IMG/VR virus record: IMGVR_UViG_3300009149_000019
Span: 20,003 to 84,002 of that record
From: a virus
Direction: 5' to 3' (one strand)
Length of the DNA stretch: 64,000 bases
The position numbers and the translations under genes were made by a program. Shown piece by piece: positions 5,246-61,500 of this stretch (positions are counted from its first letter, which is position 1; each line of letters opens with the position of its first letter). The notes beneath the pieces are model-generated. The model did not search any database. It was not told the DNA's origin and saw only the letters and a list, made by a program, of their open reading frames with translations.

Positions 5246-6673
5246 ATGACAACCATATGGTGCTTACTTATTCCCCCAAGTGAATGTAAGTATCTTCATA
5301 AAAAGATAGAAATGACTACAGTACTAATGGAAGAAAATGGGCATAGGCCCATTTTTTCTATCTTTGGGAGTGAGTTTCCAATAATACGAATACAGAAAAA
5401 GTATCCGTATTACCTAATTACTGTAGACAAAGAGGTACCCTTTGGGTGCACGGAGGTTACGTGCAATGTTACATTTACTCTATCCCAGATTGTGTGTGGG
5501 ATTCATGTGAGGGTGCCAATAAGGAAGAGAGCGCTGTTCAATAGAAAGCAGGAAATTGACAGCATGAGCAGATCCGATGCGGTCCCTTACCTCATGCATA
5601 AGTTAGACTATGGGATGAGTGTCTCGTATAAAGAGATGTATAGTGTGGTATCTACCCTGTTCTATAAGATAGATGCGGGGGCGATGACACACTACCTTTT
5701 TATTAAAAAGGTAGTTAGTGCTGGCTATAGCTCAAAGCTATTAGTGTGTTGTATTAATTACTGGGATAAGAACCACAGTCTCGGATCATTCCAAGGACTT
5801 CCCCTCATAGCCGTGCTGGAAGCCTTATACGCTTTCGGTGCGAATCGAAAGCTTGTGGTAAAGGCAGTGGCTATCATGTTTAAGAAATTCCACATGTCTC
5901 ATGTGATGCTAACAGACCATCAGTTTCCAGTGCCTTTCTTTAGGAAGCTTGGGTGTCCGAAGGAGCTTGAGTTTCTAATGATACATACTAGGAACGTGGA
6001 AAGCCTAGTAACGGACCTCTCGACCATAGCAACACCGGACAGCATCTATGGTGTTCTGAAGAATGGATCTTCTTTTTACTTAAGAAGATTAGCCAAGGAG
6101 ACGGGTAATCATGATCTTGGGTTATGTAGCCTACAGACGGATAGCGCCCTAGGCTCTATCAGGGCTGCATACGATAGAAAACTAGACCTGAATGAGATCA
6201 TACCAAATGCGTACCATTCCTATGGCAAGGACGCACGGGCAACTATGATGGGTCTAATAACTGATAGTGTTCATCAGTGCTTATCTCGCACGAACATATA
6301 TGGTAGTTCAGAGGTGGCACTACGTTTTCTTCCGGAGAACCTATTTAGTACTGGGTGGCCGACACAAAACTCGCAAAAGTTTGTGGACATTCTAGAAAAG
6401 CTCTTACGTGGGCAAGCACATTTGCTTGACGATGAAGTGCTAAAGTACCTTCTTACTACAAACAATTCCTTTTCTAGTGATCCGTTATACAGGCACTCTG
6501 TATTACGATGTATCACTAATGATACACGGATAGCTCAGGTGTTACTCAGAGTCACCCCGGATAAGGGGGAGATTATAGCAGCATTTAGGAAAAAGAGAAG
6601 AACGTATAAAAATGCCTACGCTACTATGCTAAAGAGGGTTCTTAAAGAAAGAAAAAAGAGAAAGGAGAAATAA
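5246..6673 (+). CDS. Hypothetical protein with basic C-terminal tail
   Basis: 475-aa ORF, GAGGAGG SD. Confidence 0.75.
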   Translation: MTTIWCLLIPPSECKYLHKKIEMTTVLMEENGHRPIFSIFGSEFPIIRIQKKYPYYLITVDKEVPFGCTEVTCNVTFTLSQIVCGIHVRVPIRKRALFNRKQEIDSMSRSDAVPYLMHKLDYGMSVSYKEMYSVVSTLFYKIDAGAMTHYLFIKKVVSAGYSSKLLVCCINYWDKNHSLGSFQGLPLIAVLEALYAFGANRKLVVKAVAIMFKKFHMSHVMLTDHQFPVPFFRKLGCPKELEFLMIHTRNVESLVTDLSTIATPDSIYGVLKNGSSFYLRRLAKETGNHDLGLCSLQTDSALGSIRAAYDRKLDLNEIIPNAYHSYGKDARATMMGLITDSVHQCLSRTNIYGSSEVALRFLPENLFSTGWPTQNSQKFVDILEKLLRGQAHLLDDEVLKYLLTTNNSFSSDPLYRHSVLRCITNDTRIAQVLLRVTPDKGEIIAAFRKKRRTYKNAYATMLKRVLKERKKRKEK

Positions 6674-7167
6674 TGGAATTAGAAAAAGAGAAACTAAAAG
6701 AAATGAAAGAATTTCTTACTAATAAGAGGAAGGAGTCTGGGTTTGAGTGGATAGTTAATAAAGACTCGGATAGTGTGGGCCCAAGACTGGCACACTATAT
6801 CATGAACGACTGGAAGGACCTCGATTGGTATGCAGATGAAGATATAGCCATACTTCTAGACGGGTTTCGATACTCTAGTACCTTTGAAGACACTTCACGT
6901 CTTTTTCATGCGCTAGTGTACGTGAGCATCTATTATATCCATGATGCATACACTAAAGAGAGGGTCATGGCTGGCGTTCGCAGAGCGCTAGGAAGCATGT
7001 CCTCATCTAATCTTAAAATGTTATTGTTGTATAAAGAGGCACCAGAACGCCTTCAGGCGAGCATCTCTGAGCTTCTGAAGGAGAGGGGAAACGATGGGAA
7101 AAAAGAAAAAAAGAGTAAAGTTACCAGAAGAAGCGGCAAAGGAGATACTGCAGAGTCTAGAGGATAG
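6673..7167 (+). CDS. Trp-repeat family protein (WxDxDWY cap) with shared helical box
   Basis: DWKDLDWYADED; SMSSSNLKMLLLYKEAPERLQASISELLKER. Confidence 0.75.
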   Translation: MELEKEKLKEMKEFLTNKRKESGFEWIVNKDSDSVGPRLAHYIMNDWKDLDWYADEDIAILLDGFRYSSTFEDTSRLFHALVYVSIYYIHDAYTKERVMAGVRRALGSMSSSNLKMLLLYKEAPERLQASISELLKERGNDGKKEKKSKVTRRSGKGDTAESRG

Positions 7168-7525
7168 AGGGTTCTTCACATTAATGGCTAAGGCTGGTGT
7201 AAACCCTACCTACTCTTCTGAAATAAAAGAAGTTGTCGATGACATGTTTACCTCAGGGTACACACACGGGCGCGAAGAGGGCTTTGATGCCGGATACGAA
7301 GACGGCTACAACGAGGGGAATGCAGACGGAAAAAAAGCAATGGAAGAGGTAGCGTATGAAATGGCCTTTACTGCCCTCAAGAAACAAATTGTAGATGGTG
7401 TTCTATATGCTTTATTAAAAGATTTAAACAAGGGCCATCCATCCATTATGAGGATGATCCTAATGAAGCATGGCAAAAATGATGTACTTAGGGAAGTCAT
7501 CAAAAGGGTCATGGCTGAAAAATAG
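7094..7525 (+). CDS. Hypothetical protein with GxxxG (FliH/Yae1-like) repeat and C-terminal box
   Basis: GYTHGREEGFDAGYEDGYNEGNADG; HPSIMRMILMKHGKNDVLREVIKRVM. Confidence 0.7.
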   Translation: MGKKKKRVKLPEEAAKEILQSLEDRGFFTLMAKAGVNPTYSSEIKEVVDDMFTSGYTHGREEGFDAGYEDGYNEGNADGKKAMEEVAYEMAFTALKKQIVDGVLYALLKDLNKGHPSIMRMILMKHGKNDVLREVIKRVMAEK

Positions 7526-7537
7526 AAAGGAGTAAAA

Positions 7538-8449
7538 ATGACTGAAAAAGAATGTGAATTTCTAAGATTCTCCGAGGAATTTAGCTCTTGGGGGAAAAAT
7601 ATATACGTTGGAATAAGAGACGTGTGGGCATACTGCACTATGATAAAGAACCTGATAGATTCCGGAGTGATTACTGTTGATGTAGAAAAACTGAAGACAT
7701 TCAATCCCTCCAAATGCCAGAAAGCGATTGGTTGTATATACATTATGGCAACCAAGGATCCTATATTTAAGAAGAAGGGGCATATGGCTCTACGCATTGC
7801 GTACCATATGGCTACCGATTTCAAGGACAGCCCTCTGGACGATAAGAGTAGTTCTGTAAAGGAGCTTATCCTTTACCATAAGCCAGAGTTGAAACCATGC
7901 TTCGTTAGTAAGGATTTTAAGAAGCTATCCCCATCACAGAGGAAGGAGACATATTTCCAGATTGGAAAAGAACATGCCAAAGGTGACGCATCGTACCATG
8001 TCAGAGCATCCGCTTATTATCGTAAGGGGGGCTGGAGTGATTTTGACTGGTATACAGACAAAGAGTTGTCTTTAGTCAGTATGGGAATCTGGGAAGCTAC
8101 TCTGTTTAGTACTGAAGAAGCGCCAGCTACTTTTGTATTAAAGAAAATGCTTAAGACAAAGAGCGGGGTGAAGAAGATAATAACTGGAACTAGGGCATGG
8201 AACATATGGTGTACCCAGAATCGACATTCTGAGAATTACCCTATTATGTGGCTCACCTTGAAGGACCAGTACATGAGTAAGGCCTCTACGTTTTTCTCGT
8301 ACGCTTCCGGATCTATGCTAACCACGGCTGTCCTTAACTGTGGTAATGAGCAGGCTTCTGATGTTTTACAGAAGGCACTATGTATAAAAGCAGCTAGAAA
8401 CGCTGCTAATGCTAAGGAGGGCTTATGCCAAACTGGTGTAGCAACATAG
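7538..8449 (+). CDS. Trp-repeat family protein with C-terminal box
   Basis: DASYHVRASAYYRKGGWSDFDWYTDKE; SGSMLTTAVLNCGNEQASDVLQKAL. Confidence 0.75.
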   Translation: MTEKECEFLRFSEEFSSWGKNIYVGIRDVWAYCTMIKNLIDSGVITVDVEKLKTFNPSKCQKAIGCIYIMATKDPIFKKKGHMALRIAYHMATDFKDSPLDDKSSSVKELILYHKPELKPCFVSKDFKKLSPSQRKETYFQIGKEHAKGDASYHVRASAYYRKGGWSDFDWYTDKELSLVSMGIWEATLFSTEEAPATFVLKKMLKTKSGVKKIITGTRAWNIWCTQNRHSENYPIMWLTLKDQYMSKASTFFSYASGSMLTTAVLNCGNEQASDVLQKALCIKAARNAANAKEGLCQTGVAT

Positions 8450-9981: not shown

Positions 9982-10602
9982 TTGATGCTGAACCTTATGT
10001 CACATGGATGTATGAGAAAGGATCAAGAGGAGCCCTTTGACTTTAGCACATTACAGGATCTTGGTATAGCTGCTAAGTTGGGAAGACTGGAGCCTTTTCT
10101 TTCTTTTTCCACAGATGCGCTGGTGTCTAGCTATCAAAAAAGCGCAGCTCATATGCTGTTGTGTGTGGCTGCGACTAATGGAAACACACAGGTGGTCTCA
10201 CACTTACTTAATAGTGGAGTAGGCCCAAAGTCTAGGGACTGTTCCCCTTTTGTACACGAAGGTGGCTTGTCACCGTTAGCTCGAGCGCTCATCTTTGACC
10301 AGGACGCGTGTGCTCTTGTTTTAGCAAGAGCGGGGGCGTGGCTAGATGACTACGATATTTTACTTGGAAGCTGCCCACTGCTTGTGCTAGTGTCTAGGTT
10401 CCCTACTGATGACTGCTATAGGTATGCTGATTACTTATTCGGAAATGTGGATAGTGCTCTAAAGTCGTTGTCTATCTCAGGTCGAGATGACACCGTCAGG
10501 ATGGCAGCAATCGCAGTCCTACAGAGAAAAACTGTGGCCAACCACCACGCAAGGAGGTTTAATGGCTCGAAAACTCATCATCCTCTTCCAAAAACCATCT
10601 GA
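9982..10602 (+). CDS. Ankyrin-repeat-like protein
   Basis: LLCVAATNGNTQVVSHLLNSG; GLSPLARAL..CALVLARAGA. Confidence 0.65.
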   Translation: MMLNLMSHGCMRKDQEEPFDFSTLQDLGIAAKLGRLEPFLSFSTDALVSSYQKSAAHMLLCVAATNGNTQVVSHLLNSGVGPKSRDCSPFVHEGGLSPLARALIFDQDACALVLARAGAWLDDYDILLGSCPLLVLVSRFPTDDCYRYADYLFGNVDSALKSLSISGRDDTVRMAAIAVLQRKTVANHHARRFNGSKTHHPLPKTI

Positions 10603-12756: not shown

Positions 12757-15165
12757 ATGAGATTATCCAGCCTTGTGGAAAAGTCTTCCTGTACAGATAA
12801 AAAGCAATCATCTTGTCAGAAATGTCCTTTAAGCACACGACAGTTTATCCCACCTATACTGCATGATAACAGTAATATCCTTATGGTGGGAGATATACCT
12901 GTAAAAGATGAGTCTGACGCTGGTAGGCCTATTGCTGGTAAGGCTGGAAAGATTCTTAAAGAATACCTGGACATCCATGGCATCGACAGGGATACCGTAT
13001 CCGTTTCGAATGTGGTCAAATGTAGACCAGATGAAAAGGATACCTTCAAGGTAAACCACATAACTGAATGTGGTGACCGATTTTTGGCGAATGAGGTCTC
13101 CTCCCTGAAGAGTCTTAAGCTAATAGTGTTGCTGGGTAAAACAGCGTTCAGCTACTTTTTTAATAAGGGAAATTATGCAAAGAGCTGCGGACATTTCATG
13201 GCTGGGCACGGCGCTACCTTCTTCTGTATGTTACCACCCTCTCAGGCTTATAAAAGAGAAGAGGAGTTCTCCAATGACATTAAGAAGATAAAGCTGTTTC
13301 TAGATGGGGCTTTATTTACTGATAGGAATTACATCGTTGTTGACTCCATGGACAAACTGAAGGCTGCGGAACAGACCCTTTCACAGTATGACACCCTGTC
13401 TATTGATATCGAAACAAATATTATTCCAAAGAGACGAGAGATAAAACCTCTAACCTTAAAGACATTTGCGATATCTCCAGAAAAGAATGTGTCATACGGA
13501 TTCTATATGGAGTGTGATAAGACGATATCCCCCAGGTATCATCAAGAAGCGTGGAGGATGCTGTCTTCTTTTCTTGTGAACCCGAAGATAAAAAAGGTGT
13601 TCCATAATGCAGCCTTCGAGTGTAAGCAGTTCAGGCTGAGAGGATGCAACCCAGTAAACTATGATGACACCATGATAGAAGCATTCCTCTTAGATGAAAA
13701 TAGACCAATCAACTTGAAGGAGCTTGCACACACCTATACTGAGGGGTATAAGAATCTTATCTCAGGATTCAATCAGACCACAGAAAAATTACTGGGTTAC
13801 AATATGGAAGATGCAGACCTAACACTGCAGCTCCACACTCAGTTTAAGCCGGCCCTTATAAAAAATAAGGGGTTGTTGTGGATATATGATAACCTGATGA
13901 TACCTGAGACTTACCTCTTTCCAACTATTGAGATGAACGGTGTGCTGTTTGACACCGATTACGCTCTTGAGCTCAACAGAGCTCTTTCTGTTGATGTAGG
14001 GCAGCTAGAGGCTTCTATATTCGGAAAGTATCCTATGCTGAGGAACACGAATCTTGACTCCCCTAAGCAACTGGCCGCATTTATGTTCGGTGTACTTGGG
14101 CTTAAGCCTAAATCTGAGACGCCCACAGGGAGACCTTCTTTAGCCAAGAACGACCTCACCCTTTTTAAAGAGGATGGTGTTGTACTAGCTGAGTGGATAT
14201 TGGAAAGGAGAGTAGTGAAAAAGCTGATCTCTACTTATGTGAAGGCTCTTCCTAATTTGTTAGGAGATGACAGTAAGTTAAGCTCTTCGTACTCCACAAC
14301 AACAGCTAAGACTGGAAGGGCTGCGTCGTCAAAGCCAAATCTTCAGAACATCCCTCGTGACAAAAGAGTTAAGAACACGTTTACTCCTGATCCCGGTAAT
14401 GTGTTTCTCCAAGGTGACTTCTCCCAGGCGGAATTACGGATAGCAGCTTCGATAGCAGATGAAAAGAGAATGATTGACATCTATAGAAATGATGGAGACA
14501 TTCATCGGCTAACTGCATCGATTGTTGCCGGAATCCCCCTCGCAGAGGTAACCAAGATACACAGACAGTCAGCTAAGGCTGTTAACTTCGGCTTTATATA
14601 TGGTATGGAGGCTCTCGGGTTTAAATCCTATGCTAAACAGGACTATAACGCGGAGTTTACAGAGAAAGAAGCTATACGGGCACGGGAGCTATATTTTGAG
14701 AACTACTCGGCATTAGCACCATGGCACGCTCGTGTAAAAAGGTTTGCTGAAAAGCATGGATACGTGGTATCTCCTCTTGGAAGAGTACGACGTTTACCTG
14801 ATGCACAGAACCATACAGACTTCAAAAAGAAAAGTTCTGCGTTAAGACAGGCCCTTAATGCACCAGTACAGGCGACCGCTGCTGATCTTACAGCATACAC
14901 AATGATCAGAGCTCAGCGGTTCTTAGAAAAAATGGACATGAAGAGTAAGTTAGTTCTAACTGTACACGACTCTATCGTGTTCTCAGCAGTGCCTGAAGAA
15001 GTTGAGGCTCTGGCAATGTTCCTTACAGATACGGTAACCTCTCTAGAAAGAAAATTTTCATGGTTAACTGTTCCGATGAAGATGGATTTTGAGATTGGTG
15101 ACCGGTGGGGAGCACTAAGAGAATGTTCAAATATTGAACAGCTGCTTCAATATCTGCAACTCTGA
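12757..15165 (+). CDS. Family A DNA polymerase with N-terminal family-4 UDG-like domain and 3'-5' exonuclease (SPO1-type architecture)
   Basis: CQKC, NVVKCRP; Exo DIET, HNAAFE, YNMEDA; TGRAASSKPNLQNIP, motif A DFSQAELR, motif B RQSAKAVNFGFIYG, motif C TVHDS. Confidence 0.95.
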   Translation: MRLSSLVEKSSCTDKKQSSCQKCPLSTRQFIPPILHDNSNILMVGDIPVKDESDAGRPIAGKAGKILKEYLDIHGIDRDTVSVSNVVKCRPDEKDTFKVNHITECGDRFLANEVSSLKSLKLIVLLGKTAFSYFFNKGNYAKSCGHFMAGHGATFFCMLPPSQAYKREEEFSNDIKKIKLFLDGALFTDRNYIVVDSMDKLKAAEQTLSQYDTLSIDIETNIIPKRREIKPLTLKTFAISPEKNVSYGFYMECDKTISPRYHQEAWRMLSSFLVNPKIKKVFHNAAFECKQFRLRGCNPVNYDDTMIEAFLLDENRPINLKELAHTYTEGYKNLISGFNQTTEKLLGYNMEDADLTLQLHTQFKPALIKNKGLLWIYDNLMIPETYLFPTIEMNGVLFDTDYALELNRALSVDVGQLEASIFGKYPMLRNTNLDSPKQLAAFMFGVLGLKPKSETPTGRPSLAKNDLTLFKEDGVVLAEWILERRVVKKLISTYVKALPNLLGDDSKLSSSYSTTTAKTGRAASSKPNLQNIPRDKRVKNTFTPDPGNVFLQGDFSQAELRIAASIADEKRMIDIYRNDGDIHRLTASIVAGIPLAEVTKIHRQSAKAVNFGFIYGMEALGFKSYAKQDYNAEFTEKEAIRARELYFENYSALAPWHARVKRFAEKHGYVVSPLGRVRRLPDAQNHTDFKKKSSALRQALNAPVQATAADLTAYTMIRAQRFLEKMDMKSKLVLTVHDSIVFSAVPEEVEALAMFLTDTVTSLERKFSWLTVPMKMDFEIGDRWGALRECSNIEQLLQYLQL

Positions 15166-28481: not shown

Positions 28482-28794
28482 TCTTAGCTCTTTAGGTAAA
28501 GCATGCGGCTTGGGTAGTGGTGCTCAGACATCTGGAACGGTGGCTACGTGCAGTAGTAGTAATATTGGTACGTATTATGCAGGAAGTACATACACAACAG
28601 TTTCTTATCCTTCGGTAGAAGAGGTTACCGAACTCAAAGAGACAGTAGACTTTCTGTCACACATGATTGTGTTACTTGCCCCTACAGCTCAACTTAAGAT
28701 AATGCTTCTTTTGCCTAAGACACCTGAGATAGTAAAAACAGCAATAAGGGAAAGACTTAAGATTCCTATGGATAGCCAGGAGGGAGGACTATAA
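28465..28794 (+). CDS. Hypothetical protein with C-terminal box
   Basis: GGAGG SD; Ser/Gly/Thr-rich N-terminus, PTAQLKIMLLLPKTPEIVKTAIRERL. Confidence 0.7.
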   Translation: MAMSSNLSSLGKACGLGSGAQTSGTVATCSSSNIGTYYAGSTYTTVSYPSVEEVTELKETVDFLSHMIVLLAPTAQLKIMLLLPKTPEIVKTAIRERLKIPMDSQEGGL

Positions 28795-29273
28795 TGACTA
28801 GTGATAAATCCTTAAAAACTCATAAGAAATGGGAGCAGCGGCTTCGTTACTACAGAGAGTGTAACTTTTCTGATAATGATGCAAAGAAGGATAAGCACGC
28901 AAGCATTAGGAGTCGTTTCTACGCAGCAGGTGGATGGACAGATCCTGATGCAAAAAAGGATAAAGATCATTTGATTAGGGTAGCCTACTACTCTGTGAAA
29001 GATTGGACAGACTTCGACTGGTATGTAGATTCAGATCTTGAAATAGTTAAAATGGGTATTGCTTCCTGTAGCAGGTTTAAGGACAGCACCAATCTGTATA
29101 AGGCGCTAGGTCGAGTGTTTGAGGAAAAATCGTATAACTATGCTATAAAGCAATTAAAATTAGCTCTTACAGTTGTTCCTAAGGCAGTGCTACTTCGGTT
29201 ATCCATGAAGGTCCTCGCAACTGATCCCAGAGTAAACGTGGTACTTCAAGAGATACTAACCTCGAAGACATGA
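28794..29273 (+). CDS. Trp-repeat family protein with C-terminal box
   Basis: Three 23-aa repeats ending DWTDFDWYVDSD; PKAVLLRLSMKVLATDPRVNVVLQEIL. Confidence 0.75.
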   Translation: MTSDKSLKTHKKWEQRLRYYRECNFSDNDAKKDKHASIRSRFYAAGGWTDPDAKKDKDHLIRVAYYSVKDWTDFDWYVDSDLEIVKMGIASCSRFKDSTNLYKALGRVFEEKSYNYAIKQLKLALTVVPKAVLLRLSMKVLATDPRVNVVLQEILTSKT

Positions 29274-33281: not shown

Positions 33282-33351
33282 TGTAACTACAAATAATTTA
33301 CAAGTGAGGCACAGAAAAAGGTCTGTGCCTATTCATAAGGAGGTTTACTTA

Positions 33352-37048: not shown

Positions 37049-37444
37049 ATGTCAAGCTTGAAAAAATATTTAGACTGTTTTATTGTATCTGTGCCTACTT
37101 TCCATGTTTATATTCCAGCTGAGCACATCATGCAGATAGGTGGGATAATTAGTGAGAAAAGTTCCAATGGAGAAACTATTTATATTATTAAACTTCATCT
37201 TAAAGACATTGACAGTCCTACGAAACTCCAAGTGGCAGACGTAGATGACGCTAGAAAGGTTATAACTCTTCTCTATAAACAGCTAAGTCGTTATCATTTA
37301 TTTAAGAATGTGATTTCCATGATGGGATCAGTTCCCCCATCAGTTTTAAAAAACATGCTGTTAAGCTTAGATGGGGAAGATCCATTAAAAGATATGATTG
37401 TTGCAACACTGTCAACTCAGGAACGAGAGGAAAATAACAAATAA
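37049..37444 (+). CDS. Hypothetical protein with C-terminal box
   Basis: SVPPSVLKNMLLSLDGEDPLKDMIVATL. Confidence 0.7.
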   Translation: MSSLKKYLDCFIVSVPTFHVYIPAEHIMQIGGIISEKSSNGETIYIIKLHLKDIDSPTKLQVADVDDARKVITLLYKQLSRYHLFKNVISMMGSVPPSVLKNMLLSLDGEDPLKDMIVATLSTQEREENNK

Positions 37445-40519: not shown

Positions 40520-40867
40520 ATGGAACTATTTTGTCCTTATTGTGGAGAGAAGACACAGTTCATTGCAGGTGTCCATGTCTCCGAGAGTTGGCTTGTATCA
40601 AATGATGGAGAGTTTACTGAACCCGTAGATAATGGAAACAATAATGTGATTAGGGGCCCGTTCGGCTTTGAGTGTGCTAACTGCCAAATGCCTGCAGTTG
40701 ATCTTGACAAGAGCTACAAAGTTGCGATAGCTGCTTATAGGAAGTATTATAAGAAATGTAATCCTCTCCCAGACTGTGCTATTAAGGAAAAATTGCTGTC
40801 GCAAGATATTTGTGAGGTAGAAAGGGAAGCATTAGCTTCTCTGTTAAAACGTAAAAGGAGAAGGTAA
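40520..40867 (+). CDS. Zinc-ribbon protein with C-terminal box
   Basis: CPYC...CANC; PLPDCAIKEKLLSQDICEVEREALASLLKR. Confidence 0.7.
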   Translation: MELFCPYCGEKTQFIAGVHVSESWLVSNDGEFTEPVDNGNNNVIRGPFGFECANCQMPAVDLDKSYKVAIAAYRKYYKKCNPLPDCAIKEKLLSQDICEVEREALASLLKRKRRR

Positions 40868-41865: not shown

Positions 41866-41894
41866 TAAATAATAAGTTGGGGGAAGGGGAATAT

Positions 41895-42077
41895 ATGAAC
41901 AACGTACATACTGCTACAGTACAGAAAAATTTGTCGGGGATGACATCAAAAAAGCTTGTGTGTCTTTTGTGTACTACTGTGTTACCACGGGAGACGGTTA
42001 TTGAGATAGAGCGTATTCTTTCTCAGAGAAAGTCTTCTGGAAAGTTTACATTCTTTTCAGCAAAAACAAGGAGATAA
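41895..42077 (+). CDS. 60-aa protein consisting mostly of the shared helical box
   Basis: NLSGMTSKKLVCLLCTTVLPRETVIEIERILSQR; G-rich SD. Confidence 0.6.
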   Translation: MNNVHTATVQKNLSGMTSKKLVCLLCTTVLPRETVIEIERILSQRKSSGKFTFFSAKTRR

Positions 42078-42080: not shown

Positions 42081-42272
42081 ATGCACGAAAAAATACCATT
42101 TGCTCTCCTTAACGAGGAGATCAGTGATCTTTCTGCTATGGAAGAAGCCCTTAGGGCCCTTCAGGATGATCACCCGGATGACCTTGACTTAGAGCTTACT
42201 TTGGAACAAACCATTTCCAGAAAGATATACTTGGAAAATGTGCTTGTACGACTAGTGAAGGAGGCCTCATGA
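42081..42272 (+). CDS. Small hypothetical helical-hairpin protein
   Basis: AAGGAG SD, 63 aa. Confidence 0.65.
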   Translation: MHEKIPFALLNEEISDLSAMEEALRALQDDHPDDLDLELTLEQTISRKIYLENVLVRLVKEAS

Positions 42273-42853
42273 AGGGAAGGATTTCTCGCTGGGCCTACAT
42301 TATTTTAGTACTTGTTGGTACGGCCGTTAGTGTTGGGATGAGCATCTATCTCTGTAAATGCATGCAGGTCCTTTCCATGCCCTGGCCGTGCTTCCTGTTC
42401 TTTAGTTGGGCTGTTGGTACATCAATCCCGTTTTGGATAGGTGTTACTATGAGGCGTGCTCTTTATGATCCGGATGAATCCACATATGGAAAGATTTGGG
42501 GAGATACTATGTCTGTGGGAGAGGTGTCTCTTCTCGTTAGAAGCTTACCAGACCGTTACCTCAAAGCTATAAGTTTGAGCTCAACCATTCCCCCTCTTCT
42601 GAGGGATGTAGTGGCGTTTGAGCTAGTGCTTAGAACAAAGAAGGGTACTAATGAGTATTCGGGCTTTGTTCATACTATGGTATTGGTACGTAATATATCT
42701 AAAATAGTCGAGGGGTGGGGTGTTATATTTGTAATAGGCGGATTACCTCTAATGGCCCTGGGTCTAAGTTGGCCTTTATTTGTTGGTATATCCCTCGTCT
42801 CCCTAGGTATTGGCTTTACTGTCATGTCTCCCTTCTCTTCTTTCACAATTTAA
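42269..42853 (+). CDS. Membrane protein (about 4 TM segments) with box in the central loop
   Basis: Hydrophobic segments at both ends; SLPDRYLKAISLSSTIPPLLRDVVAFELVLR. Confidence 0.7.
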   Translation: MKGRISRWAYIILVLVGTAVSVGMSIYLCKCMQVLSMPWPCFLFFSWAVGTSIPFWIGVTMRRALYDPDESTYGKIWGDTMSVGEVSLLVRSLPDRYLKAISLSSTIPPLLRDVVAFELVLRTKKGTNEYSGFVHTMVLVRNISKIVEGWGVIFVIGGLPLMALGLSWPLFVGISLVSLGIGFTVMSPFSSFTI

Positions 42854-48448: not shown

Positions 48449-49468
48449 ATGTCAACTACTGTTACGTGTATACCTTACTACACGTTAATTAATAAAGTAA
48501 AAGAGCTGGGAAACTATGGGGTTCGGGCTTTCTTAAAGGAGTGCCCGGACCCAGCAAAGGTAATTAACGCCCTAGTACCATCAAGGCGCTCTGTTATGGC
48601 GTTTGTCGCTGGAAAGGGTGACATCGAGATGATGGACACCCTGGTGGAGTTTGGTGGGGATCTAAACATAGAGAGAACACGACCAACGAAAAGCAAAAAC
48701 ACGCCTCTCATGGTAGCTATTATTGAAAAACAAAATCATATGATTACGTACCTCCTTAAGAAGGGAGCAGACCCAACACTTACAAATGCCAATGGCATCT
48801 CTCCGTTGCTACTAGCAGTTAGGAGACACAACCGGGGCATTGTAGAGCTTCTCCTTTCTTATGGGGCTGATCCAAACGTTCAGCATGCCAAGCTGTCGTT
48901 TTCCCCACTCAATCAGGCTATCTCTTCCTTTAGGGAGGATATCGTTTCTGTTTTATTAAAAGCAGGCGCTAATCCTACTGCTCCTGACAGAGATGGGTTT
49001 GCTCCTATACATATTGCCTGCAACTGTGGAATGCTTGCGGTTGTACGCTCTCTTGTAGATAGAGGTGCACCAATTGATGTAATGACTAGAATGGGGTACT
49101 CTTCTTTTTATTACGCTTGTGTGTCCGCTATGAGAAAGCATTATAGATCTAATTTCTGTAAGAAGGGCTTTGACGTCAGAGAGGCTATTGACTTTTTTAT
49201 GAGTAACGGGTATCCGGTCTTCAGGGATATTAGTAACCCTAAGTATGAGTTGCTATCAGAAGCCTTTTGTGGTGGTACGGCCTCTCTGATAATAAAGCAG
49301 TATCTTACAGACGCACGGCTTAAACGTCTACTTTTAAATAAGGTAGCACTTAAAATGTCAGAAGAAAATGAAAAATTAATACGGGAGGTTCTCATTGGAG
49401 GAAAACGAAAACAAGAACCCCATGGTCCAGATAGACATGAAAAATCCTCTGGGGTGGGGAAACATTGA
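48449..49468 (+). CDS. Ankyrin-repeat protein with C-terminal box
   Basis: NTPLMVAI..YLLKKGADP, SPLLLAV..LLLSYGADPN, LLKAGANP, APIHIAC; LTDARLKRLLLNK..EKLIREVL. Confidence 0.9.
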   Translation: MSTTVTCIPYYTLINKVKELGNYGVRAFLKECPDPAKVINALVPSRRSVMAFVAGKGDIEMMDTLVEFGGDLNIERTRPTKSKNTPLMVAIIEKQNHMITYLLKKGADPTLTNANGISPLLLAVRRHNRGIVELLLSYGADPNVQHAKLSFSPLNQAISSFREDIVSVLLKAGANPTAPDRDGFAPIHIACNCGMLAVVRSLVDRGAPIDVMTRMGYSSFYYACVSAMRKHYRSNFCKKGFDVREAIDFFMSNGYPVFRDISNPKYELLSEAFCGGTASLIIKQYLTDARLKRLLLNKVALKMSEENEKLIREVLIGGKRKQEPHGPDRHEKSSGVGKH

Positions 49469-50612
49469 GGACTTTTCAAAGTGGCAGTCTCTAGAGATTG
49501 AGAGGTTAGAGCAGAGGGCACAAGAGACGGAGGATGAACTACAAAAGTTCAAAAGGGTTAGCTTACATCTTCTTAACCACATAGAGAACAACTACTCGAA
49601 AAAAACCCCGAAAGATTTAATAGTAGACACAATAGAAGGCCCCTTTAGGAAAGATGAGTTTCTGTTTTTGTGGGACTACCTATGTGGAGTACCCTATGCA
49701 CGCAGGGAAATAGATCGAATGTTCCTTGAAGAGATTGTTGCTTGTGGTTCTGCTATAGCCCTAATTACTCTTGTTGACCATGTGGAAGGGCCCTTAGATA
49801 TCTGTATTACTGCAAATGATCTAGCTGAGCACTTCACATCAGATACGACTTTTCTATTTTTAAACTGTATGGCAGACTTTATGGACACCGGGGAGCTGCA
49901 AACACATGCTAATGATAAGTTACTATGGGCAATGTTCTTACATATACTTGAGAGTGACGTTCTTAATAGTGAACACATCATTCAGTTTTCTGATAGAATT
50001 AGCCAAATATTTGTGTGCTGTAACACCAACGGCATAACAGCTGATCTGGTATGTACTATTTATCCTACTATGGACTCATACGTGTTAGAGTACCTGCTTA
50101 TAGAAAAGCAATGGTCTATTCCGTATGATCGCCTTCTTTGGCATATGCTACATTCACATGGAGGCTGTTGCTTAGATGTTGAGAAGGGCACCTCTCTTTA
50201 TTACCTTATTGTTGAGAAGGGCACAACACTGCACTCTTTAGACACGGCGGCTCATGAGTTGGTTAGGGGACCAAACGGACAACAGAGACTTAACGTTGCC
50301 CTGACATACTGTTTAGTTGACAGAGACCTAATTACTAAGGAGGTACTGACTGATATTTTACGTTATAATGATTACTATAATGTTCTTTCGGTAATTATCC
50401 CCTTTTACCCAGAGATAGATTGGATACAGCTAATCATTTCTATAGGGAGACCTAATCTTAAGACATCGACTCTGCAAAGAATATTCGATAGTCTGCCTAT
50501 TTCCGTACTAGGACGATACTTATTGGAGAAATCACTATTGGAGGACCCTTTGTTAAGAGATCTGATAGTAAAAACGTGCTCTAACAGAAAGACCAAACAG
50601 GAGGATGTATGA
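49395..50612 (+). CDS. Hypothetical helical protein, paralog of next gene, C-terminal box (start uncertain)
   Basis: SLPISVLGRYLLEKSLLEDPLLRDLIV; collinear similarity to 50609..51850. Confidence 0.7.
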   Translation: MEENENKNPMVQIDMKNPLGWGNIEDFSKWQSLEIERLEQRAQETEDELQKFKRVSLHLLNHIENNYSKKTPKDLIVDTIEGPFRKDEFLFLWDYLCGVPYARREIDRMFLEEIVACGSAIALITLVDHVEGPLDICITANDLAEHFTSDTTFLFLNCMADFMDTGELQTHANDKLLWAMFLHILESDVLNSEHIIQFSDRISQIFVCCNTNGITADLVCTIYPTMDSYVLEYLLIEKQWSIPYDRLLWHMLHSHGGCCLDVEKGTSLYYLIVEKGTTLHSLDTAAHELVRGPNGQQRLNVALTYCLVDRDLITKEVLTDILRYNDYYNVLSVIIPFYPEIDWIQLIISIGRPNLKTSTLQRIFDSLPISVLGRYLLEKSLLEDPLLRDLIVKTCSNRKTKQEDV

Positions 50613-51850
50613 AAGGTACAAAGAGTGTGCCTAACAAACCAAAGACAGTTGAGCATGAGTTAGCTGTTACTAAACATGCTCTGGAGATGGTAACAAAGGA
50701 AGCTAAAGATACTAAAAAGACACTGTCCGGTGTCCTTTCTTATGCTATTGATCATCTTGATCATGATCAAGTAGTGAGGTTGATTAGCTCTCCAGTTGGT
50801 AAATACAGGGCAGATGCTACAGCATTACGTCTAATATGGGAGCTTGCTGAGAGCTCACATCAGATTACCAGAGGAGAGCTAGAAGACATCATATTCGGAA
50901 AAATCTTTGATAATGGGAACATTAAGGCCCTTCTAACTCTTATTGAAGTAACTGGCGGGCTTGTCTTTACGGAAGAGCCTTCTTTTTTTGAGTGTCACGG
51001 ATGTCATAACCTTCCTTTCTATCGGGTATTAGCAGACAATATTGAAAATGGCACAATACACATGAGTGTATCTCAGAGGTGGAAACTATTTACTTCTTTT
51101 GTGACGAGACTTCCTAGTAAAACAAAAGATATAATTCGTATGTCAAATCTTGTACCTGATACGTACTCAAGGTGGGATAGCGAGGCTAAGACAGACCTTA
51201 ACCGTGTATTGTGGTTAGTATCTCCGAAGGTGGTCGACCACCTTTTTGAAAAGGAATGGCCGGTTAATCTAGATGCTGTCTTGGGTTACGTTATTTATCA
51301 TGATACCTATAAAGATAAGTCAAAGGGAAGCCTTATTAAGTACCTTATATACAATGGAGCTACTCTTTGTATTGGTGACACGTCTGACCTGTTTACTCCT
51401 GATAGAGTTAATAGCAGTGATGAGTGCCTTGTTAGACTTAACTTTGTGGTAGACAATAAGTTAATAGTCACGAAAAGACCGCCAATTTCAAAAGAGGGTA
51501 TTGAGTTCTTATTTACTAAGGCTCATACAGCTAAACTGATTAAAAAGGCCCTGTCTCTTATCAAGAAGCCTGGTACACTACAGATTATTTGTAACGCGTT
51601 TGAGCGTGCTAGAAGGACTAGTAATAACTGGAGACTTTCATCAGATAATGTCGTATATACGACAACTACTAGCTTTTTTAAGTTACATTCATCAGCTGTC
51701 TTGGCAAGATGGTTACTAGAAGATATAGCTTGTCCTAATGTACATGAAATCTTACGTAATGTTTATGCAAAAAAGAGAAAACCAAGGAGGAAAAAGAATG
51801 ACGAACGAAGAAATGCTAACAATCCTGACGTCCAGACGAAAGAGAGTTAA
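50609..51850 (+). CDS. Hypothetical helical protein, paralog of previous gene, C-terminal box
   Basis: HSSAVLARWLLEDIACPNVHEILRNVY. Confidence 0.7.
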   Translation: MKGTKSVPNKPKTVEHELAVTKHALEMVTKEAKDTKKTLSGVLSYAIDHLDHDQVVRLISSPVGKYRADATALRLIWELAESSHQITRGELEDIIFGKIFDNGNIKALLTLIEVTGGLVFTEEPSFFECHGCHNLPFYRVLADNIENGTIHMSVSQRWKLFTSFVTRLPSKTKDIIRMSNLVPDTYSRWDSEAKTDLNRVLWLVSPKVVDHLFEKEWPVNLDAVLGYVIYHDTYKDKSKGSLIKYLIYNGATLCIGDTSDLFTPDRVNSSDECLVRLNFVVDNKLIVTKRPPISKEGIEFLFTKAHTAKLIKKALSLIKKPGTLQIICNAFERARRTSNNWRLSSDNVVYTTTTSFFKLHSSAVLARWLLEDIACPNVHEILRNVYAKKRKPRRKKNDERRNANNPDVQTKES

Positions 51851-52874
51851 TTATGTGATTAACTACACATGGGTTCAATGGGAAGTTATCCTGGACCTTA
51901 TGAGGAGTAAGACTATCCTCAAGGTGAATCCGGAAGCCAAACTGAGTGAGTCCCCAATTACCCGGGCGACCTATTACATGTTCTCTGACGAGGTTGACCA
52001 CGATGCGTTGAGTGATCCTCATCCTTTTGCCAGGATAAGTTATTTCTTAAGACAGAGTTGGCCGGAACTTGGTATGCACGATCCAAGTCTTTATGTAAGG
52101 AGAGAGTACTTCTCTTTTCATGGATGGCCGGCTATTGCTGGAGAAGATAAATCCAAAATGGTGAGATACGAGTTCTTCAAGGTAAAAGAGTACAAAGATT
52201 CCAGGATAAAGAAGGAAAATGACAACTGGATTCACATCAGGTACTACGAAGCAACTGAGTGGTCTGACATGGACTGGGCCTCTGATGAGGATCGTGTTGT
52301 TCCACTTACTCGTGCTTTCCTGGAATCTAGAGGTAATGTCAACAAGATGAACACAGGGGCAGTTGTCATGTCTACCGTCATGAAGATGATGATCAAGATC
52401 TCTGAGGAGAGCGAGAACATAGATGACACAAGACCAAAGTTTGTTGGATACTATCGTAATATGTACTGGAGTGATAGAGTAAGAGACAGACTGAGGTTTG
52501 TACTTGACCTGGTTAACGGAAAGGTTAACGGGTACCAGTTAGATCAGACTATCATGGGTGAGCATACTGACCACCCATACTTCAGACTCATCAGTAGGCT
52601 GTCTCACCTCTTTAGGGAAAATCAGTCTATCGCAAAGGTATCTATCTTTCGTCTGAAGGATCCTATCTTACGGGAAGCTTGCTCCAGAATGCTTACCCCT
52701 GGTCTTGTTAAAGATTTCGGTGCTAAGCTGAGAGAAGCTAGACGGCTGTCTCCTGAGATTCCTGAAAATGAGAAGAGGAAAAAGAAGAGGAAGAGTAGCA
52801 CAATGGTTGTGCGTATTCCTCAGAATGCTGCAACAATGGGGGTAATGCTCGATGAACAACAAACTGGTAATTGA
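51798..52874 (+). CDS. Trp-repeat family protein
   Basis: AAGGAGG SD; about five 22-23-aa repeats ending EWSDMDWASDED. Confidence 0.75.
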   Translation: MTNEEMLTILTSRRKRVNYVINYTWVQWEVILDLMRSKTILKVNPEAKLSESPITRATYYMFSDEVDHDALSDPHPFARISYFLRQSWPELGMHDPSLYVRREYFSFHGWPAIAGEDKSKMVRYEFFKVKEYKDSRIKKENDNWIHIRYYEATEWSDMDWASDEDRVVPLTRAFLESRGNVNKMNTGAVVMSTVMKMMIKISEESENIDDTRPKFVGYYRNMYWSDRVRDRLRFVLDLVNGKVNGYQLDQTIMGEHTDHPYFRLISRLSHLFRENQSIAKVSIFRLKDPILREACSRMLTPGLVKDFGAKLREARRLSPEIPENEKRKKKRKSSTMVVRIPQNAATMGVMLDEQQTGN

Positions 52875-54526: not shown

Positions 54527-54964
54527 ATGAAAATCAGAACTGGGTTCGTTGCGAACTCAAGTAGTTCTTCATTTATAGTTATGTATGCAAATCTGGAAAA
54601 GGTACGTTCTTCCAGACTGAAACGGGCATTACTGGATAATTCCAAGGCAGCTCAATGTGTTAAAGAGTATATTATGGAAGAGTTAGAGGGTAGAGATAAA
54701 GACAATGATGATCCTGCTATATACACTACTGACTTTATTAGTGTGACTCTTATAAATATACAGGAGTGCTATGGTGGAGAGCTCTGTGAATATACTCATG
54801 CTGATCCTGATGATGACGACAGTTGTGATTGTTCTTGTGAGATAACGGTGCTGGACTGGGATGACCGTAACAAATTGGAAGACTGGTCAAACCGTTTTGA
54901 TCCTCAGTACATTATAATTGATGAGTACCGCAAAGGGGAGATGTCACCATATGAAAATACGTAA
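54527..54964 (+). CDS. NSSS-leader family protein 1 (with box)
   Basis: MKIRTGFVANSSSSSF; RSSRLKRALLDN..VKEYIMEELEGR. Confidence 0.8.
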   Translation: MKIRTGFVANSSSSSFIVMYANLEKVRSSRLKRALLDNSKAAQCVKEYIMEELEGRDKDNDDPAIYTTDFISVTLINIQECYGGELCEYTHADPDDDDSCDCSCEITVLDWDDRNKLEDWSNRFDPQYIIIDEYRKGEMSPYENT

Positions 54965-55355
54965 TGGATTCGTTTCCAACTCAAGCAGTTCTTCATTTGT
55001 GATAGTACGATCAAATCTACAAAGAATAACAGACTCCAGGATAAAGCAGCTTTTATTACATAGTGGGCTTCCTGTCCTAGTAAAAGATCAGTGCCGAAAG
55101 GAGCTCCTTCTTAGGGATACAGGAAAAGTAAGAGCTATCCATCAAGATGAATCTTTTGTATGTTCTATTGTGGAAGAGACTGAAGATGACTATACCGACA
55201 ACAGCATTCCAGAAACAATCACGTTGTTTACTATAGGATTTCCTGCTAGTAACATACCACCCAGCATGCGGCTAGGCAGGCATTTTGATGAATTTGATGA
55301 CATCGATTTTGAGAATAACCATTCTCCAGAATTTATCTTTGAGGAGGACCTATGA
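54951..55355 (+). CDS. NSSS-leader family protein 2 (with box)
   Basis: MKIRNGFVSNSSSSSF at ATG 54951; TDSRIKQLLLHSGLPVLVKDQCRKELLLR. Confidence 0.8.
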   Translation: MKIRNGFVSNSSSSSFVIVRSNLQRITDSRIKQLLLHSGLPVLVKDQCRKELLLRDTGKVRAIHQDESFVCSIVEETEDDYTDNSIPETITLFTIGFPASNIPPSMRLGRHFDEFDDIDFENNHSPEFIFEEDL

Positions 55356-55687
55356 AGGTAAGATTTGGTTTTGTGGCTAACTCTAGCTCTCAGGACTTTG
55401 TCCTACACAATCGTAGGATGACTCAGAGTAAACATAGCATTGATGTAGAGCACAACCTTGGTGATCTAAAGAGTCCCGTATTAAAGAGATTGTTACTTGA
55501 GGATATTCCTGAGGAAGTAAAGGTGGTTATACTCAAAGAGTTTGAGAACAGGAAAGGAAAGTCGGACGATGGCTATGATGATTCTCCTGTGGAGGTTGTT
55601 GTCGTTGAGAGGTCCATGTGCTATGATAGCCATGGTCAGGAAACCTTTGAGGAAGAAGTTATTTATTCGTACCAGGAAATTATTTAG
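55352..55687 (+). CDS. NSSS-leader family protein 3 (with box)
   Basis: MKVRFGFVANSSSQDF; KSPVLKRLLLEDIPEEVKVVILKEFENR. Confidence 0.8.
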   Translation: MKVRFGFVANSSSQDFVLHNRRMTQSKHSIDVEHNLGDLKSPVLKRLLLEDIPEEVKVVILKEFENRKGKSDDGYDDSPVEVVVVERSMCYDSHGQETFEEEVIYSYQEII

Positions 55688-55695
55688 GAGGTATT

Positions 55696-56385
55696 ATGAA
55701 AGTACGTAACGGGTTTGTATCCAATTCAAGCAGCTCCAGTTTTATAATGGGTAATAGTACAACAGCGTCTGCTATGTATGATCTAATACGAGCAGTGCTT
55801 CGTGATTGCGAGATTTATTTTAACCCAGTCTCAACGTCTGACTATAATTTTATCAGAACGTTTGAGTCTGAATACGAGATCCTTACATGGCTTTCTCAGA
55901 ACTTAGATTGTGACGAACCGCTGCTCTTTAGTGGCACATGTAACTATGAAACGTTCATGATTAAGGACAAGAGCACCGGAAGAATCTTAGTAGACACGTG
56001 TAACAACCATGATTGGACTGGCCTTGACATCATCAACCATAATGATGACGATAACGATGGTACACACCAAAGATACCAGGGTTACGAGGCGAAATATAAG
56101 GATGAGCATTGTGAATTTGGTCCCTGTTCTTCCTGTGAGGAGGCTGAGTGCCCTGACCATATCCAGGACATGGTAGATGGGGATGAAAAAGACCTCGATC
56201 ATCCAAAATACAGGGTTATCTACATAGACGTAAGGACGAGGGCACGTGAGACGGAAGCACTGTATTTCTTTAAGAAATATGCTCATATGGGTTTCTATGA
56301 CAAGATCCCAGGAACAAACAAACCGTGGTCCATAGAGATCCTTGAGCTGCTTGCTCAGGGTGTAGCACAAGAGGAATTTTTATGA
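55696..56385 (+). CDS. NSSS-leader family protein 4
   Basis: MKVRNGFVSNSSSSSF. Confidence 0.8.
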   Translation: MKVRNGFVSNSSSSSFIMGNSTTASAMYDLIRAVLRDCEIYFNPVSTSDYNFIRTFESEYEILTWLSQNLDCDEPLLFSGTCNYETFMIKDKSTGRILVDTCNNHDWTGLDIINHNDDDNDGTHQRYQGYEAKYKDEHCEFGPCSSCEEAECPDHIQDMVDGDEKDLDHPKYRVIYIDVRTRARETEALYFFKKYAHMGFYDKIPGTNKPWSIEILELLAQGVAQEEFL

Positions 56386-56711
56386 AAATTCGTAATGGCT
56401 TCGTTTCCAACTCAAGCAGTTCTTCTTTCGTGGTTCCTACAGCCATGTTATCCCCTTTGCAAATTTGGGCAGTCTTAACAAATACACAAACAGATCAAGA
56501 GTACACCAGGCCAATTTGGGAGATTGGTCTGATTGATGGTTACCTGGTCGGGTATACAAGTATGGACAACTATGATATGATAGAGTTCTTAAAGAAGGTT
56601 GGGATTCCTTCCAAAGACATCAGTGGGACTGACCGTTTCTACGGAAGTCTTGAGAGCACATTAGAGTGGTATAAGGATGAAATACTTAATAATCCGAATA
56701 GGAAAGAGTAA
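56382..56711 (+). CDS. NSSS-leader family protein 5
   Basis: MKIRNGFVSNSSSSSF. Confidence 0.8.
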   Translation: MKIRNGFVSNSSSSSFVVPTAMLSPLQIWAVLTNTQTDQEYTRPIWEIGLIDGYLVGYTSMDNYDMIEFLKKVGIPSKDISGTDRFYGSLESTLEWYKDEILNNPNRKE

Positions 56712-59914: not shown

Positions 59915-59940
59915 TACAATATTGAGGAGAGAGGCCAAAT

Positions 59941-60567
59941 ATGCACACTTTACAAAATCAGATGATAACTCTGGATATCCCTGACTCTTGGGAGGATGTA
60001 CCAGGTACTTATAAACAGATAAACTATATCCAGGCAACAGACTCCTGGAAAGATCCTTCTATTCCAGAGAATTTTCCAAAGGAATCTTCTTCCCTAATAT
60101 CATTCATTAAGTACAGACATTACCAAGCTATAGGATGGAAGGATGATAAAATTATTGAAGATTCAAATTTCCTGATAAGATTTGAGTTTTATGAGAGAAG
60201 TGAGTGGAAGGACATACGTGCTAAGCGAGATGAGAAATGGGAGATCAGGCTCTTCTATTATTTCATGAACAACTGGAAAGACTATGACTGGTATAGGGAT
60301 GAATAGCTTGAGCTGGTTATTTTTGGATTTGCTACTGCAGTAGAATTTAAGATGAACAGTGAGTTTTACTCAGCCATTAACCGTGTTCTTCACAACTGTG
60401 AACCACATTATACCATTCCCATTGACAAATGGTACCTTATAGCTAGCCACCTTAGTTCTGGAGTTATAAAGCAGATGCTTTTACAGGACTATCCGTATAA
60501 GCAATATACAGATTTGTTAAGAGAAGAGCTTAGTAAAAGAGATCATAAAAATGGAGGTCCCCTATGA
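59941..60567 (+). pseudogene. Trp-repeat family gene interrupted by one in-frame TAG (60304-60306)
   Basis: WKDYDWYRDE*LELVIFG continues in frame into ORF 60352..60567, which carries the C-terminal box. Confidence 0.7.
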
Positions 60568-61184
60568 AAAAAAGTGCTCTTATTATTGTTGATCCGCAGA
60601 AAGATTTCTGTCCTGGAGGAGCTCTACCGCTTCCTGGAGGGAATGAGATAGCCAGTTATATTCTTGGTCACCTGTTTCACTACCCATTTGATCTTATGAT
60701 CGTTAGCAGAGACTGGCATCCGAAAGACCACACGTCTTTCAAAGTTGATGGGTGTGATGAGAGAGGTATATGGCCACCACACTGTATACAGGGAACATCT
60801 GGGGCTGCCTTATTGTTTATCCCACCTTACAATGTTCTTCTTGCTACAAAGGGAGATAACCCTTATGAACACCCGTATCCTGCTATGAAGGCCCATATGG
60901 ATGATGCGCCTGATACCATGGTTCCGTCTCTTCTAAAAAGTAAGAAGATTGACTCTGTTTTTGTTGGTGGTCTTGCACTTGACTTTTGTGTTAAGGATAC
61001 GGTCCTTGATCTACTAAAAGAAGGATATGAGACATTCTTGATGCTTGATGCCTGTCGTGGACTCGGCCATGCTACAATGACTGATGCTGTACGTGAGATG
61101 GTTGAGGCTGGTGCTAAGCTAACTTATATCAAGAACGTAGAGCAACTTGTGAAGTCGAGACGGAAAGATGACAGTCCTGGGTAA
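60564..61184 (+). CDS. pncA: Nicotinamidase/pyrazinamidase (isochorismatase family)
   Basis: IVDPQKDFCPGGAL, DWHP..H.SF, WPPHCIQGT.GA, TKG, GLALDFCV. Confidence 0.9.
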   Translation: MKKSALIIVDPQKDFCPGGALPLPGGNEIASYILGHLFHYPFDLMIVSRDWHPKDHTSFKVDGCDERGIWPPHCIQGTSGAALLFIPPYNVLLATKGDNPYEHPYPAMKAHMDDAPDTMVPSLLKSKKIDSVFVGGLALDFCVKDTVLDLLKEGYETFLMLDACRGLGHATMTDAVREMVEAGAKLTYIKNVEQLVKSRRKDDSPG

Positions 61185-61500
61185 CCACATAAATATAAGT
61201 GACATTGAAGAATTCTTGTGTACTTATTACTGCGATCCACTCACTGTTGAGCAATGCACTTGTCTGGGGGATAAGTGGCGTCATCTTAACATGTCCTTTT
61301 ACGCCACCAGTGCTCATACTAGAATGTCTGTAGATGAGCTAAACATGGAGACTGCAAAACTACTGGAATCCGTTATACCAGGATCAATAGTAAAGAGACT
61401 CTTACTAGATAATAGAGTAAGTAACCTCTACCTTCGTGATATACTTACCAAGGCTCTCACCTGTAACAAAGATATAATTAAAGTAGCTATCATAATGTGA
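61168..61500 (+). CDS. Hypothetical protein with C-terminal box
   Basis: PGSIVKRLLLDNRVSNLYLRDILTKAL. Confidence 0.7.
   Translation: MTVLGNHINISDIEEFLCTYYCDPLTVEQCTCLGDKWRHLNMSFYATSAHTRMSVDELNMETAKLLESVIPGSIVKRLLLDNRVSNLYLRDILTKALTCNKDIIKVAIIM

Follow-up and report, generated by a model that had tools for sequence, protein, structure and literature searches.

The stretch of DNA analysed here (the window) comprises 64,000 nucleotides, bases 20003-84002 of the 84-kb IMG/VR virus record IMGVR_UViG_3300009149_000019, and comes from an uncultivated jumbo phage whose DNA is found in subsurface and soil metagenome runs. The record, designated G000, lacks a terminal repeat and has a CheckV completeness of 33%, which puts the complete genome at about 250 kb; all genes in the window lie on the + strand. 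A short helical element, which we term the box, recurs among the accessory proteins of this phage, usually at the C-terminus and beside domains of very different kinds. We conclude that the box is a real, new small domain restricted to one lineage of uncultivated soil/subsurface jumbo phages. It is conserved at the protein level and modular, and it is predicted to be helical.

Copies of the box and their significance

The family was assembled from 38-residue segments cut around the 13 copies picked out by a permissive pattern scan, and these align over 38 columns. Each copy is given here, in window positions, with the score of a leave-one-out hidden Markov model (HMM), rank 1 unless stated otherwise, and for some copies also with the score of a position-specific scoring matrix (PSSM). 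C-terminal copies are found at 28669..28782 in the orphan open reading frame (ORF) 28420/28465-28794 (3.3 bits; leave-one-out PSSM 14.9), at 37322..37435 in the orphan ORF 37049-37444 (14.9 bits), at 50484..50597 in the orphan ORF 49395-50612 (11.7 bits), at 60442..60555 in the Trp/Tyr-repeat gene 59941-60567 (listed as ORF 60352-60567; 15.0 bits) and at 40757..40864 in ORF 40520-40867 (5.2 bits). The last, whose N-terminus has weak, below cut-off Pfam matches to zinc ribbons, is the weakest strong member (leave-one-out PSSM -0.1). Copies near the C-terminus lie at 6988..7101 in ORF 6673-7167 of the Trp/Tyr-repeat family (8.2 bits; a profile seed that is also in the family alignment), at 49295..49408 in the ankyrin protein ORF 48449-49468 (7.8 bits; Ank Pfam E 2.6e-26), at 51677..51790 in ORF 50609-51850 (1.4 bits, rank 5; PSSM 10.9) and at 61366..61479 in the orphan ORF 61168-61500 (5.1 bits). 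Within this last copy two population variants occur, both conservative (V75I and T94S). The box follows an N-terminal NSSS leader directly at 54593..54706 in ORF 54527-54964 (18.5 bits) and at 55017..55130 in ORF 54951-55355 (start 54918/54951; 15.8 bits), and also comes after such a leader at 55457..55570 in ORF 55352-55687 (14.6 bits). A further copy (42536..42649; 2.5 bits, rank 2; PSSM 12.3) occupies the 85-residue soluble loop of ORF 42269-42853, a polytopic membrane protein with hydrophobic segments at residues 8-32 and 146-189.

Several independent tests separate these copies from chance. With leave-one-out HMMs, 11 of the 13 left-out copies outscored all 103 non-member ORFs, and the remaining two ranked 2nd and 5th. 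An iterative search seeded with the 54527 copy alone recovered 10 of the 13 with no extras, whereas five shuffled proteomes per seed gave a family size of 1 (2 in one run) and the reversed proteome gave 1. The recurrence first noticed in the sequence is thus statistically significant. Sub-threshold matches also cluster near C-termini (12 of 26 observed; shuffled sequences give 2.9 of 13.9, and none of 60 shuffles exceeds 7). Topoisomerase, PolA, RNA polymerase (RNAP), RecA, RtcB and PncA are not matched, in agreement with the original prediction that core enzymes lack the box; only the coiled coil of the SMC-like ATPase is borderline. In the relative G001, described below, this ATPase (bases 67275-69197, residues 133-164) has the top non-member score of a two-block matrix, 23.0. 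The match sits in a probable coiled coil, and the window ortholog (19200-21125) matches weakly and at another position; it is taken as a false positive that marks the limit of this matrix.

The original prediction had named 14 clear and eight weaker copies. Thirteen of the clear ones form a solid family, while the other, which it had placed at 41895, is a borderline box-like stretch (41919..42032 in ORF 41856-42077) with a blastp E of 0.004 to residues 88-153 of ORF 6673-7167 and no HMM or PSSM score. With the full profile in HMMER, all non-members score at most 2.7 bits, compared to a 95th percentile of 6.5 bits for shuffled proteomes, and the weak copies therefore have no individual HMMER support. 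A stricter test, an end-to-end two-block PSSM with a per-protein shuffle p, backs two of them: 7424..7522 at the C-terminus of ORF 7094-7525 (PSSM 8.5, p 0.005; not above chance in HMMER) and a divergent box, 29166..29267, at the C-terminus of the Trp-family ORF 28794-29273 (p 0.025), which fits the family alignment column for column. The positional ortholog of the latter in G001 (h78636-79391) carries the same C-terminal element. The other six (7538, 9982, 32640, 40867, 51798 and 53916) are individually not above chance.

Counting both phages, 12 of the 16 strong copies end 21 residues or fewer from the C-terminus, bearing out the usual C-terminal location, and all 16 carriers have the box once, with no tandem arrays. 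Between pairs of copies, nucleotide identity is 0.35 at the first, 0.47 at the second and 0.29 at the third codon position, and 4-6 different codons are used in each of the conserved Leu columns. This low third-position identity and the diversity of Leu codons reveal selection on the protein, as the differing codons had suggested from the outset, and exclude a DNA element read in frame.

The consensus reads h-x-x-h-[PS]-[SD]-S-h-[LIV]-K-x-h-L-L, a loop of 5-8 residues (often with Pro-Glu), and h-[KR]-[DE]-h-[IL]-x3-L-x2-[RK], where h is hydrophobic. A third short helix, with the pattern h-x-x-h-h-x-x-h, precedes it. AlphaFold2 (AF2) run on the family alignment places helices at residues 3-6, 10-18 and 25-42 of a 46-residue segment (mean pLDDT 80). 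In the AF2 model of the full ankyrin carrier 48449-49468, a confident ankyrin domain is followed by a linker of pLDDT 53-68 and then by the box, with helices at 278-285, 288-296 and 305-317 (pLDDT 74-77); the last 19 residues are disordered. Given the additional upstream helix, the unit comprises about 45 residues and three helices rather than the ~30 residues and two helices originally proposed. In the predicted scheme, H0 would correspond to h-x-x-h-h-x-x-h-[PS], H1 to [LIV]-K-x-h-L-L and, after the 5-8 residue loop, H2 to h-[KR]-[DE]-h-[IL]-x3-L-x2-[RK]. Most conserved positions are hydrophobic. Charged columns are conserved as well: Lys in column 9 (75%), Lys/Arg in column 26 (75%), Asp/Glu in column 27 (62%) and Arg/Lys in column 36 (62%). 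The mean net charge of the core is +1.1, which is near neutral. Some copies (ORFs 40520, 50609 and 6673) are followed by a Lys/Arg-rich tail, but we rejected such a tail as an element of the motif, because the next 12 residues average +0.7, versus -0.1 +/- 1.9 for random 12-mers.

Carriers, relatives and gene setting

Kinship among the carriers was established by an all-against-all comparison of the ORFs. The proteins at 54527, 54951 and 55352 are paralogs with a common NSSS leader, and 49395-50612 and 50609-51850 are distant paralogs (E 5e-4). The largest group is an expanded, lineage-specific Trp/Tyr-repeat family, represented in the window by ORFs 6673-7167, 7538-8449, 28794-29273, 51738-52874 and 59941-60567 and in G001 by at least 10 genes. 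Its 23-residue repeat, ..D....IR..YY....W.D.D.., ends in a cap, W-x-D-x-D-W-Y-x-D. An alignment of nine members from both phages runs column for column from the repeats through this cap, a G-F...F...A-L segment and a linker into the box. Judging from this alignment, the box is the constant C-terminal domain of the family. The family gave no family match, and no homologs outside the two phages were found in a word-index search of limited sensitivity; the same kind of search found no homolog of the carrier 49395-50612 in 5.8 billion clusters.

The other carriers comprise the ankyrin protein, the weak zinc-ribbon protein, the membrane protein and the orphans 28420, 37049, 61168 and 49395/50609. 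Altogether, the box occurs in about 10 independent contexts. It is not tied to one position: most carriers have it at the C-terminus, three have it behind their N-terminal leader, and the membrane protein has it in its soluble loop. The attached domains do differ as first described (ankyrin, Trp/Tyr, zinc ribbon, NSSS, transmembrane), but many carriers are kin, being Trp/Tyr-family members or paralogs, and the early figure of about 20 unrelated proteins was too high: there are 13 strong and 2-3 weak copies in about 10 independent architectures. The NSSS proteins 55696 and 56382 and several ankyrin proteins have no significant box. Because families include members both with and without it, the module is optional and not part of the carrier fold.

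The NSSS leader itself, MK[IV]RxGF[VI][SA]NSSS, is widespread: 115 stretches in IMG/VR were confirmed by tblastn, mostly on contigs of 50-550 kb. Leader sites lie at 54527-56711 in the window, at bases 16926-17438 of G000 and in loci L103-L177. A radical-SAM/SPASM gene adjoins the leader genes in both G000 and G001, an adjacency which suggests that the Ser-rich leader could be an enzyme substrate.

One Trp/Tyr-family carrier is split in the record. The listed 71-residue ORF 60352-60567 is in frame with 59941-60306, and the 45-nucleotide spacer encodes a segment conserved in the family. The only break is a TAG at 60304..60306 on the + strand: the window has A at position 60305, where the contigs of four public runs all have G, so that the codon reads TGG (Trp). 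The stretch 59941-60567 is one gene of 208 residues. Since TGG is found in four runs, the TAG is a minority variant or an assembly error and not recoding. Global TAG recoding was considered and rejected, as TAG terminates 20 of 84 ORFs and no tRNA is present in the window.

The box was found in one sizeable relative, the 82.8-kb IMG/VR record G001 (CheckV 36%), whose RNAP beta' is 62% identical. A profile built from the window alone gave matches of 24 and 18 bits in G001 (E 5e-6 and 2.6e-4 per genome), and a more sensitive matrix revealed about 10 C-terminal copies, mostly in Trp-repeat and ankyrin proteins. Apart from core genes, the accessory genes of G000 and G001 are not orthologous; the module has therefore been retained while its carriers turned over.

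Beyond these two phages, no box was detected in about 4.7 Mb of other jumbo-phage DNA translated in six frames (best noise 8-15 bits). This set includes nine more distant RNAP-bearing jumbo-phage records (1.55 Mb in total), five whole records, one of them a 91%-complete 207-kb genome, 75 NSSS-bearing loci (1.3 Mb) and 80 RtcB-bearing loci (1.4 Mb). Among the RtcB-bearing loci, the only real matches were the G001 region itself and an identical stretch in a second IMG/VR record. Two further short relatives (12.9 and 7.5 kb) came out of a metagenome scan with RNAP beta'; both lack the box and contain only core genes. Nothing but the seed proteins of the two phages was recovered when the box profile was run against 5.8 billion protein clusters in a word-indexed search, and likewise when 1.84 billion protein representatives were scanned in full with HMMER. 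No match covering the box was found in Pfam, PHROGs, NCBIfam, PADLOC or PDB sequences, so that no known domain of ordinary function accounts for it, and we found no description of such a motif in the literature.

The recognised core genes of the window encode gyrase/topoisomerase subunits, PolA with uracil-DNA-glycosylase-like and exonuclease domains, a gp32-like protein, RecA and the SMC-like ATPase, accompanied by RtcB, dUTPase, and HD and metallophosphoesterase proteins. In PolA (12757-15165), the uracil-DNA-glycosylase-superfamily domain is N-terminal and precedes the 3'-5' exonuclease domain. RNAP beta' (21960-24884) and beta (24904-28026) are both unsplit, and beta' is only 28-32% identical to that of the nearest GenBank phages. 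Directly upstream of beta' in G000, in G001 and in the contig L021 there is always a 188-residue protein (21174-21740 in the window) that has no family match and is 57-62% identical across the three; we regard it as a candidate accessory factor of the RNAP, for which neither sigma nor alpha nor omega could be recognised in this phage. The genes beside those for RNAP differ from their counterparts in distant relatives, none being shared. An AAA+ ATPase is encoded at 33268-34449 and a papain-like protease at 39592-40452. Family scans recognised no virion gene and no shell or capsid family among the window proteins, two thirds of the genome being missing from the record. Ankyrin-repeat proteins number at least 7 in the 84 kb (9982-10602, 31727-32320, 37465-38598, 38582-39538, 40867-41853, 48449-49468 and bases 6836-7201 of G000). 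The C-termini of two of them, 38582-39538 and 31727-32320, align to parts of the box in degenerate form.

A possible docking function and its alternatives

Our leading, though tentative, explanation is that the box serves in protein-protein docking, joining variable domains, most of them of the repeat type, to one common phage or host partner. The box would be an autonomously folding three-helix module of about 45 residues, which recombination may have moved onto ankyrin-repeat, zinc-ribbon, NSSS-leader, membrane and orphan proteins, and which would link variable binding domains to a single partner encoded by the phage or by the host. We infer both that the box binds a partner and that this partner is the same for all copies. 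Docking is favoured because the same module stands in differing positions beside differing domains, because charged surface positions are conserved besides the hydrophobic core, and because the box is kept at the C-termini of Trp-repeat and ankyrin proteins in G001 even though the accessory genes are not orthologous. The near-neutral net charge fits protein binding better than binding to DNA or membranes.

Several points weigh against docking. No hub or partner was identified, and nothing ties the AAA+ ATPase or the papain-like protease, which had been put forward as hubs, to the box; with two thirds of each genome missing and no synteny with distant relatives, we name none. Many carriers belong to a single Trp/Tyr family or are paralogs, so the recurrence reflects common descent in part. 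Only two phage lineages, both represented by genome fragments, carry the box, and folding or solubility could be reason enough to retain a small helical domain.

The most serious rival, which we regard as unlikely but by no means negligible, is that the box may be a structural subdomain with no common partner, its helices capping or stabilising the carriers and its recurrence stemming from descent in a fast-evolving multigene family plus a few domain shuffles. Terminal capping helices are a common requirement of repeat proteins such as ankyrin and Trp/Tyr solenoids, the box is a fixed C-terminal domain in the family that supplies the largest set of carriers, and most conserved positions are hydrophobic. 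A solenoid cap, however, would have no role after the 18-residue leader of small acidic proteins, in a membrane loop, or on the zinc-ribbon and orphan proteins. The existence of box-less paralogs and the conservation of several charged positions likewise argue against pure stabilisation.

We consider it improbable that the boxes instead pair with each other, forming hetero-oligomers in which, for instance, soluble carriers are recruited to the membrane carrier 42269-42853. Four-helix bundles are a frequent form of assembly for amphipathic helical hairpins, and the one membrane-anchored carrier could serve as an anchor, but in the predicted three-helix fold much of the hydrophobic stripe is already covered inside a single chain. 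A complex prediction for two box copies (alignment A3), run without controls, scored 0.02 and speaks neither for nor against pairing.

It appears quite improbable that the box is a sorting signal by which cargo is loaded into the capsid or a compartment made by the phage. The box is terminal, short and common to many otherwise different proteins, and jumbo phages are reported to package many proteins (PMC7411985, PMC10052503). Against such a signal, one carrier is a polytopic membrane protein, the position of the box is not fixed at one terminus, and the carriers lie among replication, transcription and accessory genes in a window with no recognisable virion gene. The capsid-loading and compartment-import versions of the original prediction are weakened by the same membrane carrier and the same absence of virion genes.

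Tethering to DNA, RNA or lipid through a helix-extension-helix-like motif with basic flanks is highly improbable. The Lys/Arg-rich tails behind some copies would suit such an anchor, as would the helix-loop-helix geometry, with its putative resemblance to SAP/HeH motifs. Yet the basic tail is inconsistent and the core near neutral, helix 2 has conserved acidic residues, and Pfam scans at E up to 5 gave no SAP, HeH or Rho_N match. Finally, the box could be an artefact, in which amphipathic helices resemble each other by chance or a repeated DNA element (a promoter, terminator or mobile element) is read in frame. Most copies do sit at the end of a gene, directly before the next one, but this idea is refuted by the empty shuffled and reversed controls, the lack of a comparable match in the other jumbo-phage DNA and the codon usage.

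If the box is a docking tag, it would make a large number of orphan jumbo-phage proteins accessible to study: a 45-residue bait could reveal their common machine, and the variable domains would become readable as a panel of target binders. If it is only a stabilising subdomain, it still defines a new family of small domains specific to this lineage, which can aid annotation and mark the phage clade.

Likeness to known modular systems

At the level of fold, the box resembles many helical hairpins and none in particular. A Foldseek search of the box model against the PDB returned nothing at E <= 0.001, and with the full ankyrin-box model it returned ankyrin repeats only. In a wide VIA-align comparison, the best match was the myosin VI cargo-binding hairpin (Z 5.7), followed by ribosomal L29, KLHL11 and others, all at the level of generic hairpins. 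Look-alikes of the 60352 box in the ESM Atlas gave no usable match. By eye, the box recalls a HEAT-like or LRV repeat unit, with a helix containing LL, an Asp/Pro turn and a helix starting V-[KR]. Unlike such repeats, it is single in each protein and not arrayed, and the LRV (PF01816) and HEAT_2 (PF13646) models had no match in either phage at E up to 10. A profile-profile comparison of the box with the phage's own Trp/Tyr repeat was also negative (probability 0.1%).

As a short peptide common to unrelated phage proteins, possibly serving as an address, the box invites comparison with the T4 capsid targeting sequence and with the propeptides of packaged jumbo-phage proteins. The T4 signal spans about 10 residues, is N-terminal and is removed by the prohead protease. 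In contrast, the box has about 45 residues, is helical, is C-terminal in 12 of 16 copies and is also found on a membrane protein, which sets it apart from a T4-type signal. Closer in placement are the encapsulation peptides of microcompartments and the cargo-loading peptides of encapsulins, terminal helical tags that are joined by linkers to either end of unrelated cargo. Such tags consist of one amphipathic helix or a short extended peptide, 10-20 residues in length, whereas the box is a predicted three-helix unit with conserved charged positions, in a window where no shell gene was recognised.

The closest architectural parallels are the poxvirus ankyrin-PRANC proteins and the F-box and SOCS-box receptors, in which a variable, repeat-type domain is combined with a short, constant, C-terminal helical box. 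The beginning of the phage box (L-P-x-x-h-h-x-x-h-h) resembles helix 1 of the F-box by eye. Structural matches of the box model to the F-box chain of SLY1 (Z 4.4) and to the BACK domain of KLHL11 (Z 5.3) fall within the generic helical-hairpin range. The F-box (PF00646) and PRANC (PF09372) models had no match in six-frame translations of G000 and G001 at E up to 10, and Pfam scans of the carriers, run to an E of 5, did not list the F-box either. With these models, like those for LRV and HEAT_2, coming back empty, the likeness to F-box, PRANC and SOCS-box proteins is architectural and not one of membership. The adaptor-type arrangement originally proposed, a constant module on variable domains, thus stands as an analogy. 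No Skp1- or Elongin-type partner is known in bacteria, and no Skp1-like gene was recognised. The phage box also differs from F-box and PRANC in that it occurs on carriers other than repeat proteins and at internal positions. A PRANC-like placement behind ankyrin repeats is seen in 48449-49468 and in the Ank_2 protein h24287-25009 of G001, while most carriers are non-ankyrin proteins.

As in PRANC-type systems, many box proteins are encoded in one viral genome. A full substrate-adaptor system, in which solenoids and other small domains plug through the constant box into one phage or host machine (such as a protease, an AAA+ ATPase, a membrane site or a compartment), is conceivable, although we judge it rather unlikely; it would involve about one sixth of the genes in the accessory region and would mean that the logic of F-box, SOCS-box and PRANC proteins had been invented independently. 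Should the box prove to be a docking tag, the combination of variable receptor and constant box known from eukaryotes and poxviruses would have evolved independently in a bacterial virus.

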